Positions 12,564-57,462 of a stretch of 64,000 nucleotides of DNA are shown here, in pieces (positions within the stretch are counted from its first letter, which is position 1; each line of letters begins with the position of its first letter). Both the position numbers and the translations under genes were made by a program. A model generated the notes under the pieces. That model made no database searches, was not told where the DNA came from, and saw only the letters and a program-made list of their open reading frames with translations. The stretch lies in contig JAOUFJ010000006.1 in NCBI GenBank assembly GCA_029858255.1, positions 4,285-68,284 on the forward strand, given 5' to 3'. This stretch comes from a candidate division WOR-3 bacterium (GTDB lineage: Bacteria; Hydrothermota; Tepidihabitantia; SM23-42).

Positions 12564-12651
12564 CTATTTAATTATACTTTTTATCTTTATGCCTGTCAAC
12601 AATAACTGGAATCCATACTTGAAAGTTGAACATAAATGTGTATTATTGGGC

Positions 12652-16780: not shown

Positions 16781-18988
16781 CTATTTTGTATACCGGAATT
16801 CCCTGCCTATTGATATATAGTAATTAACGCGAGCTCCGATAAAATTTTCTTCATCGGTTTCGCCAATTCCCATAACGACGGTGAACGGACCGATCGGTGT
16901 ATTGGTTCTGACGCCAATGCCTGCACCCCAGTGAAGTTCTGATGCCGGGTTCTCGTTCCGGATAAGATCATCAAGACGTTCAAATGTAGCGACGTTGGAA
17001 ACCAACTGCAAATATACTGGGTAATCTTTCTGGTCCAGCAGGTTGAGTATCCTGTATTCAAGACCGAGATGCAAGATGGTACGGTTCTTGGTCGTGAAGA
17101 ATCCATTTTCGTATCCGGTGAGATTACTGCCGCCTGTATGATAATAGTAATCCCATGCCGGATCGCCGTGAGAGAATCCCAGGTTCAATCCCGGATTGAT
17201 CAATACACGTGAGGACAATGGTATATAGTGATCAAATGAAAAATCGATCCGGATGAAATCAGAGGAAGCTTTTAACCTTTCTGTAGAATATATGATTTCT
17301 GTTTTATATGATGAACCTTTATTGGGCAAATGCAGATCGTCGTAAGTGTTGTACTCCATCCGGAAAGTTGGTCCAACTATCCATTCATTCTCTGGTATCG
17401 AATCGAAGACCGGTATTTGTGGCAATCTGTGAATCGCTTCCCGTGCCGTAATGCCGAAGTTGAAAAAAGCATTGCGTCCGAGTATATACCCTGCCTCAAT
17501 CAACGCTCCATGGTAGGTTGTAGTATAAGCTGTCAACCAGGTATTATTCTCGAAAAAAGGTCTATCTATGGATCCCCGGAAGATATCGATCCGGTAGCCC
17601 ATCGGGACGGCGAATAGCCGGGTGCCTGTTAATCCGAGTCTTACGGCACGTGGATTGCCGAGATTGAGCGCGCCGCGTATGCTCGCTCCGGTTCCCCATA
17701 GGTTGCTTTGTCCACCCTCAATGCCAAGGATGAGATTGTCGCTGTTGTCATATCGAACACCCAGTGCGTAGAATCCATATTCAGACTCTTTGGTTTGGTA
17801 GATAACTTCAACCGAATCTTCGCCGTGAAATATCAGTCTGTAATTTATGTCCGAGAACAAACCTGTGTTGTATAGCGAGATCATATCTCTGTGCAGCAAT
17901 TGAAAATCGAGTTTCATGCCTTTCTTCGTCCTCACGAGATGGCTTATAGTCGAAGAACCGGTGACTTCAAGACCTTCAAATCGAATACCGCTTACGAAAG
18001 GCAAGGGACGACGCGTTATCCCGTTGGGCTTTACATATGCCTTTCTACCATTCAACTTAGCTCTTATCTCAGGTAATGCAGCTTCCGCTGCTTTTTCGCC
18101 GGCCGCGATCAGTTCACGGGCACGGTTGAAGTCCGATGACATGAAAGGATCGACATTCGGTTCAATAACAATATCCGTAAGCTGCAATTGTGCACGGTAA
18201 TCGCAGATATTTATTAGATCCATTGTGCGTGAAATTACGTCTATCAAACCTTCGTTGTTCGATCTTTGTTTGTTACGGATAGTTGTACTTGCTATGATCA
18301 GATCGGGCTCGAATTCAAGCAGAGGCTGAACCGGAAGAAACTGCTGGACACCGCCATCAATGAGCTCAAGTGTATCAATCGTCTCCGGAGAGAATACTCC
18401 GGGAATAGCTATACTTGCTCTTATTGCCTGTTCGAGTCGTCCATTCTTCATGGTGATAAGATCGCCGCTTGTGAGATCGACTGCTATTGCCCGATAAGGG
18501 ATGGGAAGGCTGTCAAAATCGTAGTAAGTGTCGAATTCGATTTCTGACAATAGATTCATTAGCAAGAATTCGACGTTTTGAAGCGATATCAAACCGGACG
18601 GAAGGGTTGGAACGAATTTCTTGTGTCCTAATACAAGGATATATCGTTGGTTCTGCTGGCGTTCAGGTAGATAAAGCGCACCAAATGGAACGCTCGAGCT
18701 GAAGAGTTTGGAAAAATCTGCGTTGACAGCAATACTCTCTATTTCTGCTGCGGTGTATCCGGCTGCGTACACACCGCCCACGAGTGAGCCCATACTGTTT
18801 CCAACAATACAGCATGGGTGAATGCCCTCGCGCTCCAGTACCTTTAGCACACCGATGTGTGCAAATCCAAGCGCAGCACCGCCCGATAGGGCATATCCGA
18901 TACGGACCTGCGATGTATCACCATCCTTAGTGTCAGGGGAAGGAACGAGGCTAACAAAGAACGCTGTAATGATAAATATCGATATCAT
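16781..18988 (-). CDS. patatin-like phospholipase fused to POTRA/Omp85 (surface antigen D15-type) outer-membrane barrel (PlpD-like, type Vd-like)
   Basis: Patatin Gly-rich loop GGAALGFAHIGVL and the GxSxG nucleophile (GNSMGSLVGG) in the N-terminal part. The C-terminal half is beta-barrel-like with alternating aromatic patterns and an Omp85-type C-terminus. Confidence 0.75.
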   Translation of the reverse strand: MISIFIITAFFVSLVPSPDTKDGDTSQVRIGYALSGGAALGFAHIGVLKVLEREGIHPCCIVGNSMGSLVGGVYAAGYTAAEIESIAVNADFSKLFSSSVPFGALYLPERQQNQRYILVLGHKKFVPTLPSGLISLQNVEFLLMNLLSEIEFDTYYDFDSLPIPYRAIAVDLTSGDLITMKNGRLEQAIRASIAIPGVFSPETIDTLELIDGGVQQFLPVQPLLEFEPDLIIASTTIRNKQRSNNEGLIDVISRTMDLINICDYRAQLQLTDIVIEPNVDPFMSSDFNRARELIAAGEKAAEAALPEIRAKLNGRKAYVKPNGITRRPLPFVSGIRFEGLEVTGSSTISHLVRTKKGMKLDFQLLHRDMISLYNTGLFSDINYRLIFHGEDSVEVIYQTKESEYGFYALGVRYDNSDNLILGIEGGQSNLWGTGASIRGALNLGNPRAVRLGLTGTRLFAVPMGYRIDIFRGSIDRPFFENNTWLTAYTTTYHGALIEAGYILGRNAFFNFGITAREAIHRLPQIPVFDSIPENEWIVGPTFRMEYNTYDDLHLPNKGSSYKTEIIYSTERLKASSDFIRIDFSFDHYIPLSSRVLINPGLNLGFSHGDPAWDYYYHTGGSNLTGYENGFFTTKNRTILHLGLEYRILNLLDQKDYPVYLQLVSNVATFERLDDLIRNENPASELHWGAGIGVRTNTPIGPFTVVMGIGETDEENFIGARVNYYISIGREFRYTK

Positions 18989-19047: not shown

Positions 19048-19617
19048 TCAGTTCTGCCCGCAGCATTTCTTGAATTTCTTTCCACTGCCGCAAGGGCAGG
19101 GGTCGTTGCGGCCTATTTTTGCCTCAGTTTTCGCTTTTTGTGCTGTTTTGCCTTTGCCTGTTTTCTTCGGAGCAACCGGGCTTTTTGATTTCCTGGATTG
19201 TGTCCGAGCGGGCAGTGCTTTTTGGAAGGCCTTGTTTTCCTTCTTGATCATTCCATTGAGTTGTTCGCCGTTCTTTATGTGTCCGGTGTCATCGAGAAAA
19301 CCAATAAAGTCTATCAATATGTCAGATACATGCTCTTTCACTTGTGAGGACAAGGTAAGTTTGCTGGGGGCGTAAACGAGCATGAAGTGCTGGATGTGAT
19401 TTTCGTGCAGTTCTCTCAGTTCCTTTCTTTCCTCGAAGAAGAGGTAATCGAGCAGGCTCTTGGTCAGGTATTCTGCAGCGTCTTTATATGACTTTGTTTT
19501 TGCCTTGAATGCTTTTGACTCAAGAAACCCGCGACTCAATGCATTGGTTGTATGTACCAGTCTTTTTTCCCGCTTCCGTTCCTCTGCGCTTTTTTTCTGA
19601 ATGTCTGCTAATGCCAT
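19048..19617 (-). CDS. hypothetical protein with C-terminal SEC-C metal-binding motif
   Basis: C-terminus [15 protein letters not shown] is a SEC-C zinc-binding motif. The rest is unassigned, with a Lys-rich linker. Confidence 0.6.
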
Positions 19618-19623
19618 ACGTTC

Positions 19624-19651
19624 ATTATACGCGGGTTTGTTGCGTTGTCAA
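19624..19651 (-). promoter_or_regulatory. consensus sigma70-type promoter (TTGACA-16-TATAAT) driving the SEC-C gene as a probable leaderless mRNA
   Basis: Minus strand reads TTGACAacgcaacaaacccgcgTATAATgaacgtATG. The -35 is at 19646-19651 and the -10 at 19624-19629. The ATG at 19617 sits 6 nt past the -10 with no room for an SD. Confidence 0.6.
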
Positions 19652-19657
19652 TCCTGG

Positions 19658-19716
19658 AGACACGCCTCCGGCTGAAGAAATTTAGCTTCGCTCCTGCAGA
19701 CACGCTTACGCTGAAG
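19658..19716. repeat. two imperfect 19-20 bp direct repeats AGACACGC(C/T)T(CC/A)CGGCTGAAG, 40 bp apart, abutting the -35 of the SEC-C promoter
   Basis: Copy 1 at 19658-19677 (agacacgcctccggctgaag), copy 2 at 19698-19716 (agacacgcttacgctgaag). Position relative to the promoter (-41 to -100) fits activator or repressor sites. Confidence 0.5.
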
Positions 19717-19773
19717 CATAATTTAAAGACAGAAATTAGGAGGTTAAGAGGATGAGAACTTGAGAAACGAAAG

Positions 19774-19818
19774 TAACGGTATTAACGAGAATAACGAAAT
19801 TAACGAACGTAACGTCTC
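19774..19818. repeat. 5 tandem 9-bp units each starting with TAACG (TAACGnnnn x5)
   Basis: TAACG starts at 19774, 19783, 19792, 19801 and 19810 with an exact 9-bp period (taacggtat taacgagaa taacgaaat taacgaacg taacgtctc). Located between the 3' end of the membrane-protein operon and the SEC-C promoter. Confidence 0.7.
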
Positions 19819-19838
19819 TTAGTAAATTCGAAATACCG

Positions 19839-20468
19839 TCACCGTATTATCCCCAACCACTCTCCCAAGAGGAATTGCAGCCTGCCGATGAGCAGGCTTA
19901 TACGAGCCATGACCGTATAGCCGAAAGAAGCGCCGAATCCGAGCATGATGAATATAATACCGAGATTCGCCACCGGTTTGATTATGCCCTTGCGTTCCCT
20001 CGAGAAAAAGAAGTAGACCAAAGTTGATATGACACCGATCAGTATTACTACAGCCCAGAGGCCTGTGTCCCATTTTGCGAATGCATCACGTACCAGCAAG
20101 GTTCCTCGTGTTTGTCCCAGGATGTCTCTCTGGAAGTAAGCAGGAATTGCCACGCCAGAACCCCATCCCAAAACGAATGCGATAGGCAGCCGTATCAGAT
20201 GATTGAATCTGGGGACAAATCGAGCGAAGTAACATAGTGCAAAGAGGAGCGGTACGATATAAAGCAGGTTACCCTGGATGAACAGTGGTTCGATAAGATT
20301 TGGCCGTATTTGATTATGCCAGGTCAGGGCTACAAGATATCCTGCAGAGACGCCGACGAACAAATGTTCGGCAAAGCGGTAGAGTATATTATCACGGTAT
20401 AGAAATGAAAATATGCAGAGGGTCAGGAAAGCAGCAAGCCAAACCCAGGGATCTGGTGATATATTCAT
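19839..20468 (-). CDS. hypothetical multi-pass membrane protein (gene 4 of an uncharacterised 4-gene operon)
   Basis: 209 aa with ~6 hydrophobic helices and no recognisable catalytic motif. The start overlaps the stop of the upstream gene by 4 bp. Confidence 0.5.
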   Translation of the reverse strand: MNISPDPWVWLAAFLTLCIFSFLYRDNILYRFAEHLFVGVSAGYLVALTWHNQIRPNLIEPLFIQGNLLYIVPLLFALCYFARFVPRFNHLIRLPIAFVLGWGSGVAIPAYFQRDILGQTRGTLLVRDAFAKWDTGLWAVVILIGVISTLVYFFFSRERKGIIKPVANLGIIFIMLGFGASFGYTVMARISLLIGRLQFLLGEWLGIIR

Positions 20469-24414: not shown

Positions 24415-24471
24415 AAATCACCGAACCTGTCAACATAAAAAATGCCATGTTCATGCGCCGTAAACATCTGC

Positions 24472-29858: not shown

Positions 29859-30887
29859 ATGGTGAAAATGATAACACGCATAATGAAAATGGTTGCCCTT
29901 GTGGTCATGATATCCCTTTCCCTGGGTTTCTGTTTCACTAAGGTTGGTACTACAGCGGCACCTTTCCTGAAGATCGAGTATGGTGCGCGGCCTGTGGCGA
30001 TGGGCGGTGCATTCGTGGCTTTGGCTAATGATCCATCCGGGATATACTACAATCCTGCCGGCATTGCTGAGATCAAGACTGCTCACTTCATGGGTGGCTA
30101 TACTGTATGGTTTGCCGATCTGAAATACAACTATGCCACGTTCATATTGCCGACTCAAAGGATGAACTTTGCCCTCTGGGGTTCTTTCCTATATTCTGAT
30201 GAAATTGAGGTTACTACAGTAGAGAATCCTGAGGGTACTGGGCAGGAATTCAGTTATGTAGACGGTCTGCTCGGTATTACGGTGTCAGCATTTCTGTCAG
30301 ACCGGCTTTCAATTGGGATCTCAGGCAAGTATATCCAGCAGAAGTTGTTCAATGAAAGCGCTTCAACATTTGCCCTGGATGTTGGTTCAATACTGCGTAC
30401 ACCTTTGAAAGGTGCACGACTGGGAATGTGTCTGGCGAACTACGGCGGGCGGATGCAGCTGTTCGGTAACGATCTTATCGTGCAGACAGATCCCTGGCCT
30501 GAATATACGGGTAACCCGGAAGTCGAAGCGAGGCTTACAACAGAATCATTTCCGCTGCCGCTCGCCTTCAAACTGGGTATTGCAGTCGACCTTTTTGGTC
30601 CTGGGGAGGCGTTCGCAAATAGTGAAGTTCACCGGGTGACGCTGGCAGTGGATGGAATACATCCAAACGATGGCGAAGAGAAATTACAGTTCGGCATAGA
30701 GTATGGTCTCTATAACACGCTCTTTCTCCGCGGTGGGTACAAGGTCAATTATGATACCCAGAAATACACCGCGGGTGCGGGCATGAAGTTCAGTATCGGA
30801 CAGCGAACCTTCGCATTCGATTATGCCTACGTTGATATGGATGTGCTGGAAGCCACACATCGTTTTTCACTTTTTATCGGGTTCTGA
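29859..30887 (+). CDS. PorV/LptO-like (UPF0164-like) outer-membrane beta-barrel protein, putative T9SS cargo shuttle
   Basis: Signal peptide, then the N-terminal motif GTTAAPFLKIEYGARPVAMGGAFVALANDPSGIYYNPAGIA. I recall this from the PorV/LptO/UPF0164 family. Beta-barrel-like C-terminus ending in F. 9-bp gap after the CTD protein with RBS GGAGGAG. Confidence 0.55.
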   Translation: MVKMITRIMKMVALVVMISLSLGFCFTKVGTTAAPFLKIEYGARPVAMGGAFVALANDPSGIYYNPAGIAEIKTAHFMGGYTVWFADLKYNYATFILPTQRMNFALWGSFLYSDEIEVTTVENPEGTGQEFSYVDGLLGITVSAFLSDRLSIGISGKYIQQKLFNESASTFALDVGSILRTPLKGARLGMCLANYGGRMQLFGNDLIVQTDPWPEYTGNPEVEARLTTESFPLPLAFKLGIAVDLFGPGEAFANSEVHRVTLAVDGIHPNDGEEKLQFGIEYGLYNTLFLRGGYKVNYDTQKYTAGAGMKFSIGQRTFAFDYAYVDMDVLEATHRFSLFIGF

Positions 30888-33039: not shown

Positions 33040-33068
33040 AGGGGGCAGCTAGGCTGCCCCTTTTTTTT
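33040..33068. terminator. bidirectional rho-independent terminator between convergent CTD-protein genes
   Basis: A8 run, a perfect 9-bp GC stem GGGGGCAGC (33040-33048), loop tag, GCTGCCCCC (33052-33060), then T8. Serves both strands. Confidence 0.85.
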
Positions 33069-34599
33069 ATTCGATCTTGACTATTTTTCGCGTGATGGCG
33101 TCCGTACCGATCTCCGCTCTTAGCAGATATATGCCGGTGGGCAGAGACATGCCGTTCATGTCTCTCATGCTCAGCAGCATGCTATTATTACCGGCATTAA
33201 ACCTGCCACTGTAGATTGTATTGATTTTGCGTCCAAGACAATCGTAAAGAACCAGGTTGATGTGTTGTGCATCATCGAGTAGCAGGCTTAGGTTGATTTG
33301 GTCGCTCACCGGATTACTGACAGAAAGTTCGGTACCAGGAAGTGTATTGATAACGTTTTCTGCTATCTGTGTGCTGTGTCCGGTCGGTTTAAGAAAAGGA
33401 TCACCGAGTAGTGTCATTCCATAATGCCAGCAAACTCTTTCAAGTGTTATGCCGATGGAATCGTAAATGCAGTCAAACCAATAACGGAATGCTTCGCCCA
33501 TTGTTTTGTATTCACCCAACGGTCGGTAGAAGAATTGAAAGTCGAGCATGCTACCGGATTTGGTTGAACCGATCGCACCTATTCCATAGTCTTCGTTAAA
33601 GATGGCCTGACCGCCGCCATAGCCGGCTTGTGTGTAACGGCAGAAAGAGCACGCGAAGAAATTATAGAAGTTTGTTGGCGGGTTCTGGTTTATGTATTCA
33701 TAGGCATAGTAATAATCATACTGGGAACCACTATTATAGGAGAATTGGTGTATGCTGGGTGATGAATGGGCAAATACCGAGACCCATGCCTGCAAGCTGT
33801 CGAGTCTTGTCCGGTATAACGATGCCCTGGTCGTTTCTGGATGCCAGTAATTTGTGGTATCAGGGAAAAGTAGTGATACGTCATTTGCCCACGTCGGAGC
33901 CCAGGGTACCCAGTCGTCATCAACAAAGACGAGCGCACGTTTCTGCAAATTCATCGAACCTTCGCGGTATCTTTTGTCCTTAGCGAAGTATTTTCTCAAT
34001 ACGAGCGTGTCGAGGCCAATACCGGTCGGGAGCAACCTTCCAACATATATTTCGAGGTTGGTGTTTCCAACATGTCCGTCGTATTTTCCGTTACCAGTGC
34101 TTATGGTATCGAGCCAGGTGCCGTCCAGATCCATGTAGAAAAGGTCCATGGGGAACTGGGCCAGACTTCCGCCGTAATCGTATACTTCAAACCATGCGAC
34201 CGGCATGTTTCCAATCATCAGGACACCTTCGATCCCATCGGTGCTGTATATTTCTTGCAGAAAGGTCCGTAGCGTCTCGGGCGTGCCTCCTGAAGTCTGG
34301 TAGTCGAATACGGTGTAGCCCTCGGCGGTCAATGATTGTGCCAGTTGTTCGATCTCGGTTTCCAGATACTGGGCGATGGTTTGTTCCGTAAGAACGGCAA
34401 CATTACCGAGACGGCCGTCACCCTGGTACACTCTGTTCAGTATGTAGTGGAATTGACTGTAAGGATGATCTTCCATCCATTCTTCATAAGTACCGGGCCT
34501 GCTGCCTGATGGATCTGCCCATTTGAGTATTGGAATGTCTTCTATGCCAGCACCAAATAACGAAGTCAGGCAAAACAATATTATCATGAGTCGAATCAT
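33067..34599 (-). CDS. secreted gingipain-like (peptidase C25-related) protein with T9SS C-terminal sorting domain
   Basis: Signal peptide. Region TVFDYQ...IEGVLMIGNMPVAWFEVYDYGG...DLFYMDLDGTW...YVGRLLPT parallels the C25 catalytic-domain pattern of the 1151-aa protein below. C-terminus (NLVLYDCLGRKINTIYSG...GIYLLRAEIGTDAITRKIVKIE) is CTD-like. Confidence 0.6.
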   Translation of the reverse strand: MIRLMIILFCLTSLFGAGIEDIPILKWADPSGSRPGTYEEWMEDHPYSQFHYILNRVYQGDGRLGNVAVLTEQTIAQYLETEIEQLAQSLTAEGYTVFDYQTSGGTPETLRTFLQEIYSTDGIEGVLMIGNMPVAWFEVYDYGGSLAQFPMDLFYMDLDGTWLDTISTGNGKYDGHVGNTNLEIYVGRLLPTGIGLDTLVLRKYFAKDKRYREGSMNLQKRALVFVDDDWVPWAPTWANDVSLLFPDTTNYWHPETTRASLYRTRLDSLQAWVSVFAHSSPSIHQFSYNSGSQYDYYYAYEYINQNPPTNFYNFFACSFCRYTQAGYGGGQAIFNEDYGIGAIGSTKSGSMLDFQFFYRPLGEYKTMGEAFRYWFDCIYDSIGITLERVCWHYGMTLLGDPFLKPTGHSTQIAENVINTLPGTELSVSNPVSDQINLSLLLDDAQHINLVLYDCLGRKINTIYSGRFNAGNNSMLLSMRDMNGMSLPTGIYLLRAEIGTDAITRKIVKIE

Positions 34600-37804: not shown

Positions 37805-40800
37805 TTAATGGATAATGATGATTTTCTCGCTCGTGACATCATTAGCAATGGATAGTACTGCGAAGTAGATTCCTGGCGCCAACCTTCTGCCCTTATCGTC
37901 ATGGCCATCCCAATTTACTGATGTATGCAAGTCAATATGTGATGATAGCCCAGAAAAAGTTTTTACCAGACGTCCAGTAACATCGAAAATTCTCAGGTCG
38001 ACTTCGCCACTCGCATACTGGTTTCTGTAATCATTTACGACGTATCGGATATCAGTTGAATACCTGAATGGATTTGGTCTGACATCGAGAATAAGTGGAT
38101 AGATGTTACTACTGCTATATTCCTCAAGGAAGGTTATGGCTTCAATATTAATGTCATCAATGTAGAATCCTTCTGCAACATCTCCATCATAGTCACTCTT
38201 GAAGGCAATTCTTAGTTGGATTGTGTCGCCGCCCGCGTATTGCCCGAGTGGATATTGGTCTTTGAACCAATCACCCTGAATGGCGCGGCTGCTGTCCAGC
38301 GCACCGCCTGTACCGATGAAGTTCAACGTGTCCGAGCCATTTCCATGCACTATTATGACATAAATGCCGTCAGAACCATAAATCGGTACTTCAAACCAAC
38401 GCATGAAGTTGAGTGTTGAATTATGGTCGACCATGAAAGGAATCGTTTGTATATAGCAATCCATATTATTGAGATAAAGACCATTTGATTCTTGGCCGCA
38501 ATACCATGCGTGATCGGCTGAGAATGCTCGGCGCGTTGAGATATGCCATTGGTTGTTACTTCCGCCTGTTGTCCAGAGGCCGCTGCCCGATTCCATATCG
38601 TCAATGAATCCGGTTTCGCCAATGAGTAATACTATGTCTTGGTTAAAATTGTACGATTCTGTTGCCATATTGAATGACAATTGCGGGTGATGACCAGGTG
38701 GGCAGGAAGATGATACTGCGACATGGAACGGACCAACTGCACATGTTGTGTCCGGTGGAATTTCCCCAGCGCTGACGCTATCGGTAATAACGGTGACGTA
38801 CGGGTCTGTCGAACTCAATGAGATCTGGGTTGTGTGAGCAAAACCATAGCCTGCGTTGGCGATACTAATGTTGATCTGGGCGGTGTCACCTGGCATGGTC
38901 GGGGCATTCGATACGGAAAAATCTGGTATGCTCAACTCCGGCGTACCCACCAAGATGCCGGGGTAGTGGGTTAGTGTCCTGCTTGCTTCTGTTATTTCGA
39001 GTTCAAAACTCAAGGTATGTGCATTTGTTGTATTACCAACGAGAATGGAAAAAGCATGGTCGAGGCATGTTGAGTCCTGCTGATTCAGTGTGCCTAGATA
39101 CTCAATACTGTCCGAAATTATGACGTAAGGATCTTGCGAACGCAGCCGGAAATCCATATTGTTAGCCGTTGCGTTACCGGTATTCTTGATCAGCAGTGAA
39201 AGCAGAATAATTTCGTTGGGATTGGCAATACCGTCGCCATTGCCGAGCGAGTCGTTGAGTATCCATCTCTGGTAATTTACATACGGGCCACTGACCACGG
39301 GAAGGGTCGTCTCCAAAGGAACGTAATTTTGTGCCGTAACAGTGAGTTCAAAATCACCAAGGGTGGCCGGGCTTGCCTGCAGAAATATCTGTCCACTCAC
39401 ATCTGTATAGCCTGCGGCGTAGGATTCATCTGCCTTCATGAGGCAGACCAAGGCGTTTTTGATGGGCGCGTTAGTGTTCTTGGCCCTCACTGAGATGAGG
39501 ATGCTACTGCTACCAAGAGCAACTGATTGGGGTGCAGCTACGGCGATTGATTCTGGTAATGCGGTCCAGACCATCATTTCCGGTTCGCCCAATAGATTTA
39601 ATTGATACTGATGCCAGCGGTAGACATTCTTTTCACGTGAATACGGGATAAAGTATGCTTTACACATTGCCAATGCTTCCCCGATGTGGTAGTTATTCTC
39701 GACGAGCAGTGAGTAGAAGAAACGGCTGTCGAATATGTCGGATATTCCGAACCCAGGATTCCCGGGTGATCCCCACCCGTAGCTTGAATTCCCGACGAAT
39801 GCTACGCCGCCGCCATTTTCGTTATTCATCCAGCCTTCAGCGATGCATGCGAAATCAAAGGCGGCAGTCCAGCAGCCAAGGCTAAAGATAATGCCATAAC
39901 GCGGCGCATTTGTGATCGTATCGAGGTCGATCGTATTGAGGTATCCGACACCTACACCCATGACACTTGTGCTGCCATGTCCGTCGTGATTAATCAGATT
40001 CTGTCCACTCCTTATTGCGGCCATTACGCTTTGACGGTTTTCATTACCAAGTGTTTCATAGAGTTTGGTTACAACAAGATTGGGTAGGAATGATTCTTCC
40101 TCTATACGGTTCTTATGAATCGCCTGGTCGGTGAACGGGCTCTGCCAGAGCACTTCAGCGAGCAAGAGTGCCTTATCGAGATATTCGTTTGGTGGATTCT
40201 TTTCATAGGTCAGGATTTTGTTGACAAAATTCTGTGCTTCTGTTACGGAAGAGACCGGGGCTCTTCCGACCGATAGGTCAGGATATAGATCTATGCTATC
40301 TTCTACCTCACCATACAAACCATCACCATCAAAATTCCAGTTACCCTGCAAATCGGCATAGTACAGGTCACAAGGCAGTGAATCCTCTCGGTTCCAAATG
40401 GAAGCACTGCACGTCATTGCATAGGCAAATCGACAGGGGATCATGTATGTATCACCACCAAGCAGGACGTACTGAATGTTCGAATCAGGCAGAGTCTTTA
40501 TGTAATTACGAATGCACGCAGCGTTATCTTCACCGGTGTAATTCGCCAGTATCCAGTCGACTGTCCTAACGTGTGCCGGTAGTCCTTTCTTAGTTTTCCA
40601 ATCTGCCAACCTCTGGAAAACTGTGTCGAACGGCGGATTACTAATGATGAGATAGGTAATATCATCAGGATCACGAGTTCTTTCATATTCCGAGATATCC
40701 TCTGGATTAATGATCATCTTTTTTAAAAGAGAAGATTGCGCGGTGCGTTTAGTCCCTCCACGGTAGGTGATGCGGAATCTCACTGATCTGTTAAAAATGA

Positions 40801-49810: not shown

Positions 49811-50794
49811 ATGAAGAAAACCGACCTCAATGATATTGACGAGCTCCGGAAAAGTTATATAGGGATGCGTGATGAAATCGGCAAACTTATCATCGGTCAG
49901 AAAGAAGTGATCGACCAGGTCCTGGCGTGTCTGTTTTGTAATGGCCATTCTTTGATAATAGGGGTGCCGGGCCTGGCAAAAACGATGCTTGTCAATACTA
50001 TCGCGGACATCCTTGCCCTTACATTTAACCGGATCCAGTTCACCCCTGATCTAATGCCCGCCGACATAACCGGCACGCAGGTAATTGAGGAAGATCTGAG
50101 CACCGGCCGAAGAAATTTCCGTTTTGTCAAGGGGCCTATTTTTGCAAATGTCATTCTGGCCGATGAGATCAACCGCGCTCCACCCAAAACGCAATCGGCT
50201 TTGCTGCAGGCAATGCAGGAATACAAGGTCACTTATGGCGGTGAGACACACAGTCTGTCCTTGCCTTTCTTTGTGCTGGCAACACAGAACCCGATCGAGC
50301 AGGAGGGCACTTACCCACTGCCTGAGGCACAGCTAGACCGCTTCATGTTCACGATTTTCATAGAATATCCATCCTCAGAGGAAGAGGTCGAGATCGTCCG
50401 GACCACAACTTCGGCTTATGAGGTCGATCTGGAGAAAGTGCTCGACGGGAGCAAAGTCCTCCGTTTTCAGAAACTAATAAGGAAAATGCCGGTTGCTGAT
50501 GATATCATCGAAAAAGTGGTCCGGCTGGTTTCCTTGACCAGGCCGAATCATGCGAGTGCTCCACAAAATGTGAGGAATTATGTCAGTTGGGGCGCAGGAC
50601 CACGTGCTTCCCAGTATCTCATCCTGGGCGCGAAGGCCGTTGCTGCCCTTGACGGTCGGTACTCACCAAACCTCGAGGACGTTAGAAGCGTTGCCCGGCC
50701 GGTATTGAGGCACCGGGTCATCACCAATTTCGCCGCCGAAGCTGAAGGGGTGAAGTCGGACAACATAATCGAAGAGCTTCTGCAAGCTCTCTGA
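49811..50794 (+). CDS. MoxR-family AAA+ ATPase
   Basis: Walker A GVPGLAKT, Walker B ILADEINRA, sensor regions. 327 aa, typical MoxR length and start. No adjacent VWA-domain partner. Confidence 0.9.
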   Translation: MKKTDLNDIDELRKSYIGMRDEIGKLIIGQKEVIDQVLACLFCNGHSLIIGVPGLAKTMLVNTIADILALTFNRIQFTPDLMPADITGTQVIEEDLSTGRRNFRFVKGPIFANVILADEINRAPPKTQSALLQAMQEYKVTYGGETHSLSLPFFVLATQNPIEQEGTYPLPEAQLDRFMFTIFIEYPSSEEEVEIVRTTTSAYEVDLEKVLDGSKVLRFQKLIRKMPVADDIIEKVVRLVSLTRPNHASAPQNVRNYVSWGAGPRASQYLILGAKAVAALDGRYSPNLEDVRSVARPVLRHRVITNFAAEAEGVKSDNIIEELLQAL

Positions 50795-53751: not shown

Positions 53752-55491
53752 CTATTCGAGAATCACTTTTCTCGTGGCGTCGACATCATCGTATTCCAAT
53801 TTTAGGAAGTACACACCTTTTGGTAAATCGGCGCCTACATTGTCTTTACCGTTCCAGGACACAGTGTACGTGCCCGCGGTTTTGTGTTCATGGACCACCG
53901 TTGCGACATGTTGGCCTATCGCGTTGAACGCACGGATTGAAACCATTCCACTGACCGGAACCGTGTATGAGAAACGGGTCATGGAAATGAACGGATTCGG
54001 ATAGCTCGGCCCCAGAAGGTTTCTTGGCGCGACGATCTTGTTTTCCTCGACCCCGGTATTTGACCAGGCATCAAAATAGACATTGTCGCCGCCTTCACCG
54101 ACGTAAGCGAGCGCCGGAACTCCGGGCGCCTGGAAGGTCTGGATCGGCCTTGTGAATTCGGGCACCGAGTCATTGAACGTGTCTGGCTGTGCCCAGCTGC
54201 TGTCTGTATCCCATACAGTAGTATGTATGATCTGTCCGGTCCAGGTTGTGTCGTTCTCAGTAATTATGAAGCTGAGGTATGGAGTGTAGTGGGTAGCCGA
54301 ATCGTAAACGACGATGCTTGGCAGAACTTCGTGCTTGAAGTAGGAAGACACGAACGCAGGTGACGACCATGCGCCGCCTTCGTCTTGTGTCCAGGAATAC
54401 CACAGGTCATAGTCATATGGTGTGCCAGACCAGCGCCTCGGCCAGACGACCCAGGCATCGTCCGTGCCATCGTGAGAAGCCGCGATCTGTGGGCCGTGTT
54501 TAATTAACGTATCGGTTTGAACGACCTGAGAGCTAGCCCAGTTGGTACCGTAGTTTGTGCTGACGCGGGTTTGTATGTTCTTGTTGCCACCGGTCGGTCT
54601 GTAGAGATAAGCCTCGAAAATGGTACCGCCGCTGCCGTAGGTGATGTCCGGATAACCGGACCCGCTAAATTGAAGCTGCGTGGCTGCTTCCCAGGTTGTG
54701 CCATAATCGACCGTGCTGGTCCACCAGATTCCGTCCTGACCTGGACCCCCGAGAGATTTATGGTACGCGCAATAAACATAGTAGCCGGACGGCCAGTCTG
54801 CCCGGTCTGAGCAAACCGAGTAATTGGTGACTGTGTCTGCGGTGCTCTCGATCCCCGTGCCGCTCAGCGTGCCCGTATCGTCGTACCTGGCACCATAAAG
54901 ATTACCGTTGCCCAGGGAATTGCGGACGATGATGTGGTAATAACTGCCGGTTGGGCCATGGATGATTTCGGGTTCATATACCGCAGACGGCGTAGTGAAA
55001 AAGAAGCCGTGTTCGTATGCCCAACTCAGTCCGTTATCTAACGAGATGAATACCCTCACCAACGAGTCAAGGCATGCGACAACTGCGCGGACCGTATCAC
55101 CGCGGTGATAATCAACCGATATCGCTTCGTCATCAACGTCTGCAACCATAGCCCAGCTGTTGTAATTGACCTGTCCACTGTATATTATCTTATCATCACC
55201 CCATCTCAAGAGCGGGTCGTCTTCCGGCTTAACATTGATGACGTCTGGGAGCCTGTATTCATCCGCTGGCAGCGACATGCTCTTGTATTCTTCGAGCAAT
55301 TTATTGTAGGTTTCCATATCCTGATTCTTTCTGGCTTCCATCAGGCGCTCGACAAGCGGATGAACTTCAGGAAAAAGGTCAGCGCCGATCGCTGGTTCAG
55401 GATTCTGTATGGTGACGTCATCGGAAATGTTCTTCTGCGGCGCTGCAAACGCAACTGCACATATTGCCAACATAATTACCACTTTGTTCAT
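53752..55491 (-). CDS. secreted BNR-repeat (sialidase-like beta-propeller) protein with T9SS C-terminal sorting domain
   Basis: Signal peptide. BNR-type motifs (YGTTWEAATQ, TNYGTNWAS, DEGGAWSSP). C-terminus PNPF...VSIRAFNAIGQHV...GVYFLKLEYDDVDATRKVILE is CTD-like. Confidence 0.7.
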   Translation of the reverse strand: MNKVVIMLAICAVAFAAPQKNISDDVTIQNPEPAIGADLFPEVHPLVERLMEARKNQDMETYNKLLEEYKSMSLPADEYRLPDVINVKPEDDPLLRWGDDKIIYSGQVNYNSWAMVADVDDEAISVDYHRGDTVRAVVACLDSLVRVFISLDNGLSWAYEHGFFFTTPSAVYEPEIIHGPTGSYYHIIVRNSLGNGNLYGARYDDTGTLSGTGIESTADTVTNYSVCSDRADWPSGYYVYCAYHKSLGGPGQDGIWWTSTVDYGTTWEAATQLQFSGSGYPDITYGSGGTIFEAYLYRPTGGNKNIQTRVSTNYGTNWASSQVVQTDTLIKHGPQIAASHDGTDDAWVVWPRRWSGTPYDYDLWYSWTQDEGGAWSSPAFVSSYFKHEVLPSIVVYDSATHYTPYLSFIITENDTTWTGQIIHTTVWDTDSSWAQPDTFNDSVPEFTRPIQTFQAPGVPALAYVGEGGDNVYFDAWSNTGVEENKIVAPRNLLGPSYPNPFISMTRFSYTVPVSGMVSIRAFNAIGQHVATVVHEHKTAGTYTVSWNGKDNVGADLPKGVYFLKLEYDDVDATRKVILE

Positions 55492-55797: not shown

Positions 55798-57462
55798 TTA
55801 TCTTACAACGGTCATTGTTTGGGTACCGACACCCTCAGGAGCTTCTACTCGCACAAAATAGATGCCAGCAGAGATATTTCTGGCTTCAATGTTGACCGAG
55901 TGGTCACCCGCCGTCATTGTCTGGTCGACGAGTGTATTGACCATCCTGCCTGCTGCATCATAGAGCGAGACGCTGACATGTCCTGGAGTACGAATCGTGA
56001 ATGAGAGCCTTGCTATGTTTCGGGATATGGTAGGTGTCAAGAGCAGGTTTCTGATGGACGGTTCAGTTACGGGATATTCCTGTACTGCCGTGTTCCAATA
56101 ATAGTCAAACCAAATAGCATTGTATCCACAATAGACTATCGCGCCGCCGCCAGCTGCTAGCACGTAGTTGACCGATGGCGCAGTGCCAACCTTGGACAGA
56201 TGATCGCTGAGATTTTGAGTTGTGGTCCAGCTTCCGTACTGGCAGAATTGATAATCGACCCTTGTATCTGCCATGGTTGTCTGCGTATTATACACTGCGC
56301 GCGCCTGATTTGCGGCGTCCGAACCAACCAGGAGCTCAAAATATTTTTCATCGCGTGCCGGGTCGTTGGCCAGGTCTATATCAGGGAACAAGCTGTCATT
56401 GCGCCACGCGATGCCATCGTAGGAGTAATCCCACACAAGATTCCAGTCGCCGGAGTTGTTAAGGTTCTCTTCGGCAACCACCCATGCCGTATCACTGTCA
56501 TAGAAACCGGTGATCTGGCCGTTGACATCATCCGAAAGCCCGCGGAAATTATGGGTGTGAGGCGTGATTCCTTCCCAACCGGCAAAACCCTGGTAGTCAT
56601 TGCCTTTTGAGTAGGTGACAGGACCATTGTCCCAGACGATGTATGACCAGATTTCAGGCGCCGCAAGCATCCTGATATCGGGGTTGTGCACTGTTTGACC
56701 ACTGAGCACATTGTAAGACGAGGTCCATGTGGCTCCATAATCGCTCGATGCCCTGAATCTGAGTATTGTGTCGTACACGCAGTATGCCATGTACATGTAT
56801 TCCGAGCCAGGCAGCTCGAGTTGATCTAATGCCGGATCGAAAACAAATCCTGTCGTAACCTCGACCCAGTTAGTCGTTCCGGCAGTTATGTTGTATCTCA
56901 GCAACCAGATATCATCGTCCTGGGCATTGCACATCACAAAGATGAATGTGGAATCACTTTCATCCTCAAGGACGACATCGATATTATAGATCTCTGTTGT
57001 GTCGTCGACCGATGCGTCGAGGATCCAGCTCCAGGATTCTCCGTTATTCGTTGACCTGCATATCGTGATGGAAGAATTAGCACTGATGAGCGGTCCCATA
57101 TACTTGTAGACGACATATAGCGTGCCGTCAGATGACTTGAGGAGTTTGCTGTCAGTTGCAAGCGTGTCATCGATAACCAACACATCCGTTCCCCAGTCAG
57201 GATTGGTCCCACTGCCATGTCTCTCTGTTTGTATGATTCCAGGGATCCGTGTGTTGGATGTTACATCACACTCAGCGTTGTAAGGTACAGTGGATTCGAT
57301 GTATGGCGTACCTCCAGTCTCGATCAGTGTTCTGTCTCCCGCCTTTACGGGGGCAGGGGTTACTTCACTTACACCGTAGATTTCCTGATCACTTGCTGGT
57401 TGTGCGATGCTCATCGCAGTCAAAGCCAACACGCTAATAACAATATAAGACACATACTTCAT
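55798..57462 (-). CDS. secreted BNR-repeat protein with T9SS C-terminal sorting domain (paralog of 53752..55491)
   Basis: Signal peptide. BNR motifs (RSTNNGESWSW, SSDYGATWTSS). C-terminus (LLLTPTISRNIARLSFTIRTPGHVSVSLYDAAGRMV...GIYFVRVEAPEGVGTQTMTVVR) is CTD-like. Confidence 0.7.
   Translation of the reverse strand: MKYVSYIVISVLALTAMSIAQPASDQEIYGVSEVTPAPVKAGDRTLIETGGTPYIESTVPYNAECDVTSNTRIPGIIQTERHGSGTNPDWGTDVLVIDDTLATDSKLLKSSDGTLYVVYKYMGPLISANSSITICRSTNNGESWSWILDASVDDTTEIYNIDVVLEDESDSTFIFVMCNAQDDDIWLLRYNITAGTTNWVEVTTGFVFDPALDQLELPGSEYMYMAYCVYDTILRFRASSDYGATWTSSYNVLSGQTVHNPDIRMLAAPEIWSYIVWDNGPVTYSKGNDYQGFAGWEGITPHTHNFRGLSDDVNGQITGFYDSDTAWVVAEENLNNSGDWNLVWDYSYDGIAWRNDSLFPDIDLANDPARDEKYFELLVGSDAANQARAVYNTQTTMADTRVDYQFCQYGSWTTTQNLSDHLSKVGTAPSVNYVLAAGGGAIVYCGYNAIWFDYYWNTAVQEYPVTEPSIRNLLLTPTISRNIARLSFTIRTPGHVSVSLYDAAGRMVNTLVDQTMTAGDHSVNIEARNISAGIYFVRVEAPEGVGTQTMTVVR

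Follow-up and report, generated by a model that had tools for sequence, protein, structure and literature searches.

In the 64-kb window analyzed here (the whole stretch of DNA, from a candidate division WOR-3 bacterium), a 221-nucleotide (nt) spacer at positions 19618-19838 lies between an upstream DUF6754 membrane-protein operon and the promoter of a gene for a SEC-C motif protein. The explanation that best covers the spacer as a whole, and one that we consider moderately probable, is a leaderless promoter standing beside a candidate protein-coated array. The SEC-C mRNA is very probably leaderless, as judged from a conserved sigma-70-type promoter. The array, made of 9-nt units, is tentatively read as a cooperative protein-binding array that may be coated by a small, oligomerizing nucleic-acid-binding protein, an assignment that we regard as plausible but short of probable. 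The locus is not an assembly artifact, because an independent assembly (L292; L-numbers denote the loci of relatives) is identical to the window across it.

The SEC-C promoter and leaderless starts in the window

The promoter of the SEC-C gene matches the consensus at 12 of 12 positions, and the first T of its -10 hexamer sits 12 nt before the A of the ATG. A first-pass annotation of the region had described TTGACA-16-TATAAT with the ATG 6 nt after the -10, and each of these elements is indeed present (Table 1). GAACGT is the sole sequence between the -10 and the ATG, and its 6 nt are too short for a Shine-Dalgarno (SD)-like sequence. No in-frame start exists upstream of the SEC-C ATG, and homologs of the protein start at the same residue; the family is conserved at about 189 amino acids (aa), with homologs of 187 to 195 aa at a query coverage of 99 to 100%.

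Orthologous loci were gathered via the SEC-C protein and via the upstream membrane protein; a SEC-C protein search of the genome contigs yielded zero syntenic loci, since matches to the generic SEC-C motif overwhelmed it. Eleven sequences were aligned at the promoter. TTGACA is unchanged in all of them, the -10 reads TATAAT in nine and TATACT in two, and the ATG follows 6 nt past the -10 in 10 of the 11, the exception being L169 (5 nt). L295 and L296, inspected in addition, show the same layout, again with TTGACA unchanged. The -35/-10/ATG geometry is thereby kept in all 13 distinct orthologous loci, which span 54 to 100% protein identity, while the bases of the spacer and the discriminator vary.

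The A of the ATG is the seventh base after the -10, which is the usual position of transcription start. Because the geometry is conserved as the intervening bases drift, the start position is the usual one, and the -10 agrees with a published signature, we accept the leaderless mRNA that the first-pass annotation had predicted. The signature of leaderless genes is TANNNT with its first T about 12 nt upstream of the start codon (PMC3160421), and it has been validated experimentally in Deinococcus (PMC12340547). A housekeeping sigma-70-type promoter would start transcription at the A of the ATG, yielding a leaderless mRNA, and ribosomes would read this mRNA from its 5'-terminal AUG without an SD sequence. 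SEC-C shares with published leaderless genes the first T about 12 nt upstream, the missing SD, the AUG start, and the company of many such genes alongside SD-led ones (PMC3160421). In medium-GC genomes the leaderless motif is the full TAtaaT, as in the SEC-C promoter (PMC3160421). The difference is that here a perfect -35 TTGACA and a 16-nt spacer are present in nearly every case. The WOR-3-like lineage apparently lies outside the published surveys of leaderless genes.

The SEC-C gene had been singled out in the first-pass annotation as distinct among SD-led genes, which is wrong, as at least eight other genes of the window share its layout. Perfect 12/12 consensus promoters number 8 in the 64 kb versus 0.06 expected from dinucleotide shuffles, and 8 of the 13 promoters that score at least 11/12 have an ATG at 6 to 7 nt opening an open reading frame (ORF) of 132 to 667 aa. 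The IspF gene has the same promoter-ATG layout at 5 nt; altogether, an ATG 5 to 7 nt after the -10 is found in nine genes of the window, SEC-C included. ORFs in which the promoter abuts the ATG in this way have N-termini consistent with Pfam (IspF, a TrkA-type channel, GlnA, a UvrD-like helicase, UPF0047, two GGDEF proteins, and an SLBB exporter). The other genes of the window, mostly operon internal, carry strong AGGAGG-type SD sites. The leaderless layout is a habit of this genome, seen in about one-fifth of the window genes and in most first genes of transcription units.

The perfect TTGACA/TATAAT promoters are located at 12599, 24433, 43294, 47255, 55612, 57646, 61641, and 19651, all on the minus strand. 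Their spacer is 16 nt in six of eight cases, versus an optimum of 17 nt in Escherichia coli. Divergent promoter pairs occur at 24433/24472, 34643/34671, and 61641/61659.

A phased nine-nucleotide array and its candidate protein coat

The array occupies the upstream part of the spacer. According to the first-pass annotation, it comprised five TAACG units (plus-strand reading) at an exact period of 9; these five stand, but the count was incomplete, since a sixth, degenerate unit (AAACG) is also there. Tandem Repeats Finder reports a period of 9 and 5.4 copies at 19766-19814. Three consecutive units (at most two mismatches) exist at this locus only in the window, with 0.11 expected and none of 100 shuffles reaching the observed count, and the array is the sole fixed-period 4-mer chain of at least four units in the 64 kb (0 in 5 shuffles). 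No complementary TAACG cluster was found on the same strand elsewhere in the window. A literature search with the 9-mer TACGTTAAT returned SARS-CoV-2 primer papers only.

The motif nYCGTTAnT, its orientation, and its register are common to seven close taxa, with 4 to 14 units: 14 in L082, 13 in L167, 6+5 in L168, 7 in L086, 6 in the window, at least 6 in L171 (contig end), and 4 in L169. A related array exists in L295, outside these seven. Over the seven taxa, the step is exactly 9 nt in 59 of 61 gaps. Conservation depends on the column: non-consensus bases in columns 1 to 9 number 39, 31, 0, 2, 11, 5, 13, 37, and 12 (chi-square P = 6.6e-20), and which columns vary freely does not change from taxon to taxon. 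In the logo of 61 to 62 units, C is found in 62/62, G in 60/62, the second T in 57/62, the A and the last T in 79% each, and Y in 84%, whereas two columns carry only 0.09 and 0.15 bits. As many as 49 of the 61 units are distinct, and neighbors are not more alike than distant units in their free columns (0.89 for adjacent versus 0.95 for distant units, of 3). The array is identical in L292, L293, and L294, although L293 and L294 differ from the window by one copy of another repeat, the box described below.

This pattern points to purifying selection that acts on motif and phase and leaves copy number free. Slippage followed by decay, or concerted evolution, is disfavored because conservation is column specific, the units are distinct, and neighbors are not more alike. 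For the same reasons, and because the array is unchanged in a near-identical strain, the slipped-strand repeat proposed in the first-pass annotation does not hold, and the array does not behave as a slipped-strand variable-number tandem repeat (VNTR). The array begins 24 nt past the upstream stop codon in the window and 0 to 48 nt past it among the taxa, while the distance from its end to the -35 ranges from about 60 to 450 nt. The array tracks the end of the upstream operon, not the SEC-C promoter.

A nucleoprotein site, which had been among the first-pass suggestions, fits this selection pattern best. The closest precedents are short repeats coated by ribbon-helix-helix (RHH) proteins in type Ib partition centromeres and operators, among them the omega heptads and the metboxes of MetJ. 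The nearest of all is the centromere of plasmid pCXC100, with nine uninterrupted 9-bp direct repeats of modest conservation, on which dimers of the RHH protein ParB bind cooperatively and coat the DNA with a measured spacing of 9.0 bp (PMC3074162). In parH/OF of TP228, degenerate 4-bp boxes with 4-bp spacers, both direct and inverted, are coated by ParG (PMC3130281). With six uninterrupted 9-bp repeats and a degenerate core, the array falls within the range of RHH arrays (at least four uninterrupted repeats of 7 to 9 bp with a degenerate core; PMC3074162, PMC3130281). The likeness extends to a period off the helical repeat, free positions within the core, copy numbers from at least 4 to about 14, tolerance of copy number and orientation, and a motif that differs between related systems. 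On duplex DNA, a 9-bp step would spiral the protein around the helix, as RHH proteins do on contiguous 7- to 9-bp repeats, and the coated array, standing before the leaderless promoter, would serve to mark or insulate the upstream operon at its 3' boundary. L295 holds an inverted array and inverted boxes, and the 7- and 8-nt arrays that sister lineages carry at this site occur in direct as well as inverted orientation, which is easier to reconcile with recognition of double-stranded DNA. We infer a bound protein, DNA rather than RNA as its target, and a boundary function. RHH centromeres differ in that the array is chromosomal, located between a membrane-protein operon and the SEC-C gene, does not overlap a promoter, and has no parA/parB or RHH gene nearby. 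Because the anatomy is common to both but this context is missing, the array is likened to RHH-coated arrays and not filed as a member.

Several points weigh against a protein-coated array beside a leaderless promoter. The transcription start site (TSS) of SEC-C is a prediction from promoter geometry. No RHH, LytTR, helix-turn-helix, or other DNA-binding gene was found in the 64-kb window by Pfam searches that covered all ORFs of 90 aa or longer, nor among the small ORFs inspected in the gaps; likewise, there is no par operon, so that the context of the precedent systems is absent. The near-constant distance to the stop codon, as opposed to the promoter, would suit an RNA in the 3' untranslated region (UTR) equally. 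The orientation of the array is the same in the seven close taxa, and its sense strand is pyrimidine rich and, outside the invariant CG, poor in G, which would suit such an RNA just as well. Finally, the other motifs of sister lineages need either a fast-coevolving protein or a function that is independent of the exact motif.

LytTR sites offer a second comparison. The consensus of this family was reportedly given by Nikolskaya and Galperin in 2002 as [TA][AC][CA]GTTN[AG][TG], and the 9-bp unit resembles it (sites of AgrA, AlgR, ComE, and PlnC/D). LytTR sites are two 9-bp direct repeats with a spacer of about 12 bp, located upstream of the promoter that they regulate (PMC2766830). The array was rejected as a LytTR site, as its 4 to 14 units are contiguous, its distance to the promoter is variable, and no LytTR gene exists in the window. 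The resemblance is probably coincidental.

Other readings of the spacer

Instead of DNA, the functional form of the array might be RNA in the 3' UTR of the DUF6754 operon, where its phased YCGUUAnU units would serve as an unstructured platform for Rho or another multimeric RNA-binding protein in termination, pausing, or mRNA stabilization ahead of the leaderless promoter. We consider this unlikely, though it is the main rival. The position just past the stop codon in every taxon and the free distance to the promoter are in its favor, as is the lack of an intrinsic-terminator-like hairpin on the minus strand from 19618 to 19839. On both strands, shuffled sequences fold as well as the intergenic region does (z = -0.45 and -0.08), and the former value suggests an unstructured RNA. 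A Rho utilization (rut) site is an RNA stretch of about 60 to 80 nt that is C rich, poor in G, and unstructured, with YC dinucleotides at intervals, which the primary sites of Rho accept. The array has YC every 9 nt in an unstructured region and a sense strand poor in G outside the invariant G; but the excess of C over G is modest (C/G of 1.0 to 1.7, the 90th percentile in the window), and Rho explains neither the invariant G of each unit nor the conserved UUA-n-U.

Two observations on base pairing also favor RNA. At the same position, L087 has an ATCAG/ACCAG 8-nt array followed by an inverse CTGAT array (L087:3150-3290), right after the stop of the membrane gene, and it folds into a long imperfect hairpin (z = -2.45), suggesting an RNA role at the 3' end. 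In the window, an 11- to 12-bp stem is possible between 19773-19783 (fifth unit) and 19832-19842 (in part in the post-stop module), and a change of stop codon from TGA to TAA between near-identical strains turns a G·U pair of this unit-5 stem into A-U. However, transcripts of the inverted copy in L295 would carry the complementary sequence, and no Rfam family matches: the whole window gave 0 hits at the gathering score, and a permissive search gave only a chance snoRNA match (E = 0.38). We know of no bacterial RNA-binding protein with a 9-nt step. A broader reading, which we consider rather improbable, takes in the whole clade: a single conserved intergenic site on the chromosome of these WOR-3-like organisms would host phased arrays with periods of 7, 8, or 9 nt, whose motif and orientation are exchanged between sister lineages while register stays strict and conservation column specific. 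Such a site would act either as a boundary or centromere-like element of the chromosome, with a coat of a fast-coevolving small DNA-binding protein encoded elsewhere, or as a new type of platform in the 3' UTR on which a multimeric RNA-binding protein binds in steps of 9 nt.

A neutral origin, in which array and boxes are functionless, minisatellite-like DNA from slippage or unequal recombination, draws on the turnover of the spacer among relatives. The 221-nt spacer is a fast-evolving mosaic of short-period repeat modules, a hotspot of repeat turnover, and intergenic length ranges from 196 to 950 nt. Relatives of the C/T-rich module (TTCTCAyCCTCTyAACyTCTGTC) are found in L082, L084, L168, and L169, sometimes twice; GGTATTTCGAATTT, from the post-stop module, is found again behind the stop in L086 and at other intergenic places in L084 and L168. 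Different arrays of 7-, 8-, or 9-nt units occupy the same place in relatives. In L088, L090, and L091, AAAT-type units of 7 nt precede inverted ATTTG-type units; a 7-nt CTTGATG run stands ahead of the CGTTA arrays of L082 and L168; six 8-nt GTCTCCCn units adjoin the -35 of the SEC-C promoter in L087; and L296, L090, and L091 contain 8-nt arrays of GAGAC, which is the box core in reverse complement. The 950-nt intergenic region of L295 (L295:1538-2500) holds forward CGTT 9-mers and an inverted block of AACG 9-mers and GCTGAAGACAC boxes, so repeat modules can invert and duplicate; an 80-aa ORF without a Pfam match was called there. Sister lineages with other arrays at the same position have membrane proteins of 87 to 90% identity, whereas such arrays are missing from more distant relatives (75% identity or below), in which another gene comes next.

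This turnover, the range of 4 to 14 units between species, and the ~18-nt box that differs by one copy between near-identical strains count in favor of a neutral origin. Under neutrality, however, the nine columns of the array should vary alike, yet two are saturated while C and G are almost invariant. The distinctness of the units, the lack of any extra likeness between neighbors, the exact register, and the unchanged array in the close strain speak against it as well, and a neutral origin for the spacer as a whole has only a slight chance of being correct. For the ~18-nt boxes taken alone, it is quite possible.

Cyanobacterial short tandemly repeated repetitive (STRR) heptamers and enterobacterial repetitive extragenic palindromes and bacterial interspersed mosaic elements (REP/BIME) are intergenic mosaics, often at the 3' ends of operons, that are dispersed in many copies. 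The array is like them in its short tandem units, its sometimes inverted, hairpin-forming pairs, and a mosaic of modules that differs between relatives. It is unlike them in being unique in the 64 kb and in having nonidentical units with column-specific conservation.

The two direct repeats near the -35 belong to a separate family. They read CTTCAGCGTAAGCGTGTCTGCAGGA at 19716-19692 and CTTCAGCCGGAGGCGTGTCTCCAGGA at 19677-19652 on the minus strand, with starts 40 nt apart, a 1-nt indel between the copies, and CTTCAGC and GCGTGTCTsCAGGA in common; the exact 14-mer GCGTGTCTSCAGGA is found at the SEC-C direct repeats only. A near-identical strain (L293, L294; about 97% identical over the region) differs by exactly 18 nt, an extra box GCGTGTCTTCAGCGTGAA at the proximal repeat, which places the repeats in a family of ~18-nt boxes in tandem. 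The core of this GCGTGTCT-type family is GTGTCTnCAGs, and the two clean copies have degenerate ones (GCTTCAGCGTAA and tCTTCAGCCGGAG) at their flanks. Box copies number two in the window versus three in L293/L294; L169 has five, L296 has three at a period of about 18 nt, and L086 and L167, the closest relative by SEC-C identity, have none. Of 11 orthologs, 6 have a GCGTGTCTsCrGGA-like box directly at the -35. Boxes of the GTGTCTTCAGC type occur beside the promoter as far as L296 (63% identity). The distal module GCGTGyyTnCAGGAGCGAAGC is kept in L082, L084, and L169 at a varying distance to the promoter; its distance to the proximal box is 40 nt in the window but about 130 and 180 nt in L084 and L082, respectively. 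Overall, box spacing among relatives ranges from 18 to about 180 nt.

Because boxes adjoin the -35 in these orthologs and recur to L296, a regulator site is plausible, and a regulator of the SEC-C promoter probably binds the GCGTGTCT boxes, which gain and lose copies beside the -35. The first-pass annotation went further and placed two activator sites at -41 to -100, which is not borne out: since box number, spacing, and presence vary among relatives, a fixed two-site activator geometry is not conserved. There is little to recommend its more general model either, a specially regulated promoter with two phased repeats for an activator and the 9-bp array as an iteron-like or wrapped site of the same control region. 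The boxes beside the -35 and their recurrence agree with it, but a perfect consensus promoter needs no activator, SEC-C is one of nine such genes in the window, the boxes lack a conserved number and spacing and are missing in L167 and L086, and the array tracks the upstream stop codon in a place with no replication context.

Repeats of VNTR or contingency loci are known upstream of promoters, for instance, the 7-bp repeats of the Haemophilus hmw promoters. The GCGTGTCT box beside the -35 resembles them, and has the copy number difference between close strains (2 versus 3) of a slipped-strand VNTR. The 9-nt array differs, as its units are nonidentical and stable between near-identical strains.

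An iteron-like array had also been suggested in the first-pass annotation, and this part fails: there is neither a replication context nor an inversion of GC skew. A replication origin or terminus at the array was rejected, as the cumulative skew is monotonic across 19.7 kb and no DnaA-box cluster is present there. Three perfect DnaA boxes (TTATCCACA) do occur within 100 nt elsewhere, at 49655-49663(-), 49676-49684(-), and 49742-49750(+), with about 0.5 expected per window; they sit in a 166-nt gap upstream of a MoxR-type AAA+ gene (49811..50794). This cluster is not read as oriC because no GC-skew inversion is found there, and it may be a DnaA-regulated promoter or a DnaA-titrating site instead.

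Finally, it is most improbable that the 9-nt period is coding, i.e., that the small plus-strand ORF of Table 1 encodes an Asn-rich (x-N-x)n peptide: nine nucleotides are three codons and every taxon has an open frame through the array, but the AnT-AAC-GRn and nTA-ACG-RnA frames cannot contain a stop, so that openness is automatic; the start codon is missing in L086, L169, and L171 (three of seven taxa) and the C-termini differ; the wobble base of AAC is fixed in 60/62, and the A-n-T codon keeps its first and third bases with the second free (I/N/T/S), a pattern without amino-acid logic; no consensus plus-strand promoter exists, in a genome with near-perfect promoters; and the 7- and 8-nt arrays at the same site in relatives cannot be coding. 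An AGGAGG at 19738-19743(+) counts in favor; it lies 8 nt before a 3-codon ATG mini-ORF (ATG AGA ACT TGA) whose TGA overlaps the TTG start (TTGA). The sense strand of this region (window 19738-19763) reads AACCUCCUAAUUUCU and resembles the 3' end of 16S rRNA (anti-SD). Viral contigs, too, hold the same DNA pattern nearly always in xxN-repeat ORFs; of 80 contigs examined among those carrying the 4-unit pattern, 66 have it in frames of at least 150 aa. These viral repeats were rejected as kin of the array, being perfect repeats inside long ORFs and unrelated in kind.

The locus, its neighbors, and implications

Coordinates are collected in Table 1.

Table 1. Features of the spacer and of the genes discussed
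Feature	Position	Strand	Remarks
SEC-C motif protein gene, 189 aa	19048..19617	minus	PF02810, E = 7.5e-11 (Pfam); C-terminal zinc-binding SEC-C motif; Lys-rich C-terminal tail
SEC-C start codon ATG	19617-19615	minus	6 nt past -10; predicted TSS is the A at 19617, 7th nt after -10
-10 hexamer TATAAT	19629-19624	minus	followed by GAACGT
-35 hexamer TTGACA	19651-19646	minus	followed by 16-nt spacer
Proximal box CTTCAGCCGGAG-GCGTGTCTCCAGGA	19652..19677	minus	adjoins -35
Distal box CTTCAGCGTAA-GCGTGTCTGCAGGAGCGAAGC	19685..19716	minus	
C/T-rich module CTCAAGTTCTCATCCTCTTAACCTCCTAATTTCTGTC...	19718..19760	minus	plus strand is purine-rich AGGAGG...GAGGATGAGAAC
Antisense 20-codon ORF, TTG start, MRNESNGINENNEINERNVS	19760..19822	plus	judged spurious
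Six head-to-tail 9-nt units, motif nYCGTTAnT	19761..19816	minus	
Array cores	CGTTA at 19814, 19805, 19796, 19787, 19778; CGTTT at 19769	minus	
Post-stop module CGGTATTTCGAATTTACTAAGA	19817..19838	minus	
209-aa membrane protein gene	19839..20468	minus	last of four-gene DUF6754 membrane-protein cluster; Pfam/ORF
Genes of type IX sorting-domain/PorV-like group	33067..34599, 37805..41260, 53752..55491, 55798..57462, 29859..30887		

The gene order around the spacer is kept among relatives: the four-gene DUF6754 membrane cluster is followed by the intergenic region, SEC-C, and a patatin-Omp85 gene, and this synteny is seen in L082, L086, L168, L169, L295, and L296. The nearest named homolog of the SEC-C protein is from candidate division WOR-3, and PDB matches of the SEC-C protein are confined to the C-terminal motif of SecA and YchJ. 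Downstream of SEC-C, patatin-POTRA-Omp85 genes stand two in tandem in L081:877-5374 and L086:1923-6424, versus one in the window (16781..18988). C-terminal sorting domains of type IX secretion (Por_Secre_tail, FlgD_ig) are present in several large secreted proteins of the window, which also has a PorV-like gene; these genes are consistent with an organism that is related to the Fibrobacteres-Chlorobi-Bacteroidetes (FCB) group or WOR-3-like. Between lnt (43344..44933) and glnA (45871..47220), a 937-nt gap (44934-45870) is without a convincing ORF and without an Rfam match and could be a degraded gene or an unannotated noncoding element.

The promoter result is mainly corrective, in that a near-perfect TTGACA-16-TATAAT 6 to 7 nt before the ATG is routine in this uncultured lineage. 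The leaderless layout is useful for annotating start codons and operons in WOR-3-like metagenome-assembled genomes, and it extends the list of phyla with heavy use of leaderless mRNAs. The array, at one conserved chromosomal site where repeat content changes between sister lineages, is a clean example of a phased motif under selection whose spacer columns and copy number are free to vary. Were it coated by a protein, the array would be a chromosomal counterpart of the RHH centromere and operator arrays of plasmids, or else a new RNA-binding platform. If true, this would provide a handle on the control of operon boundaries in an uncultured phylum.

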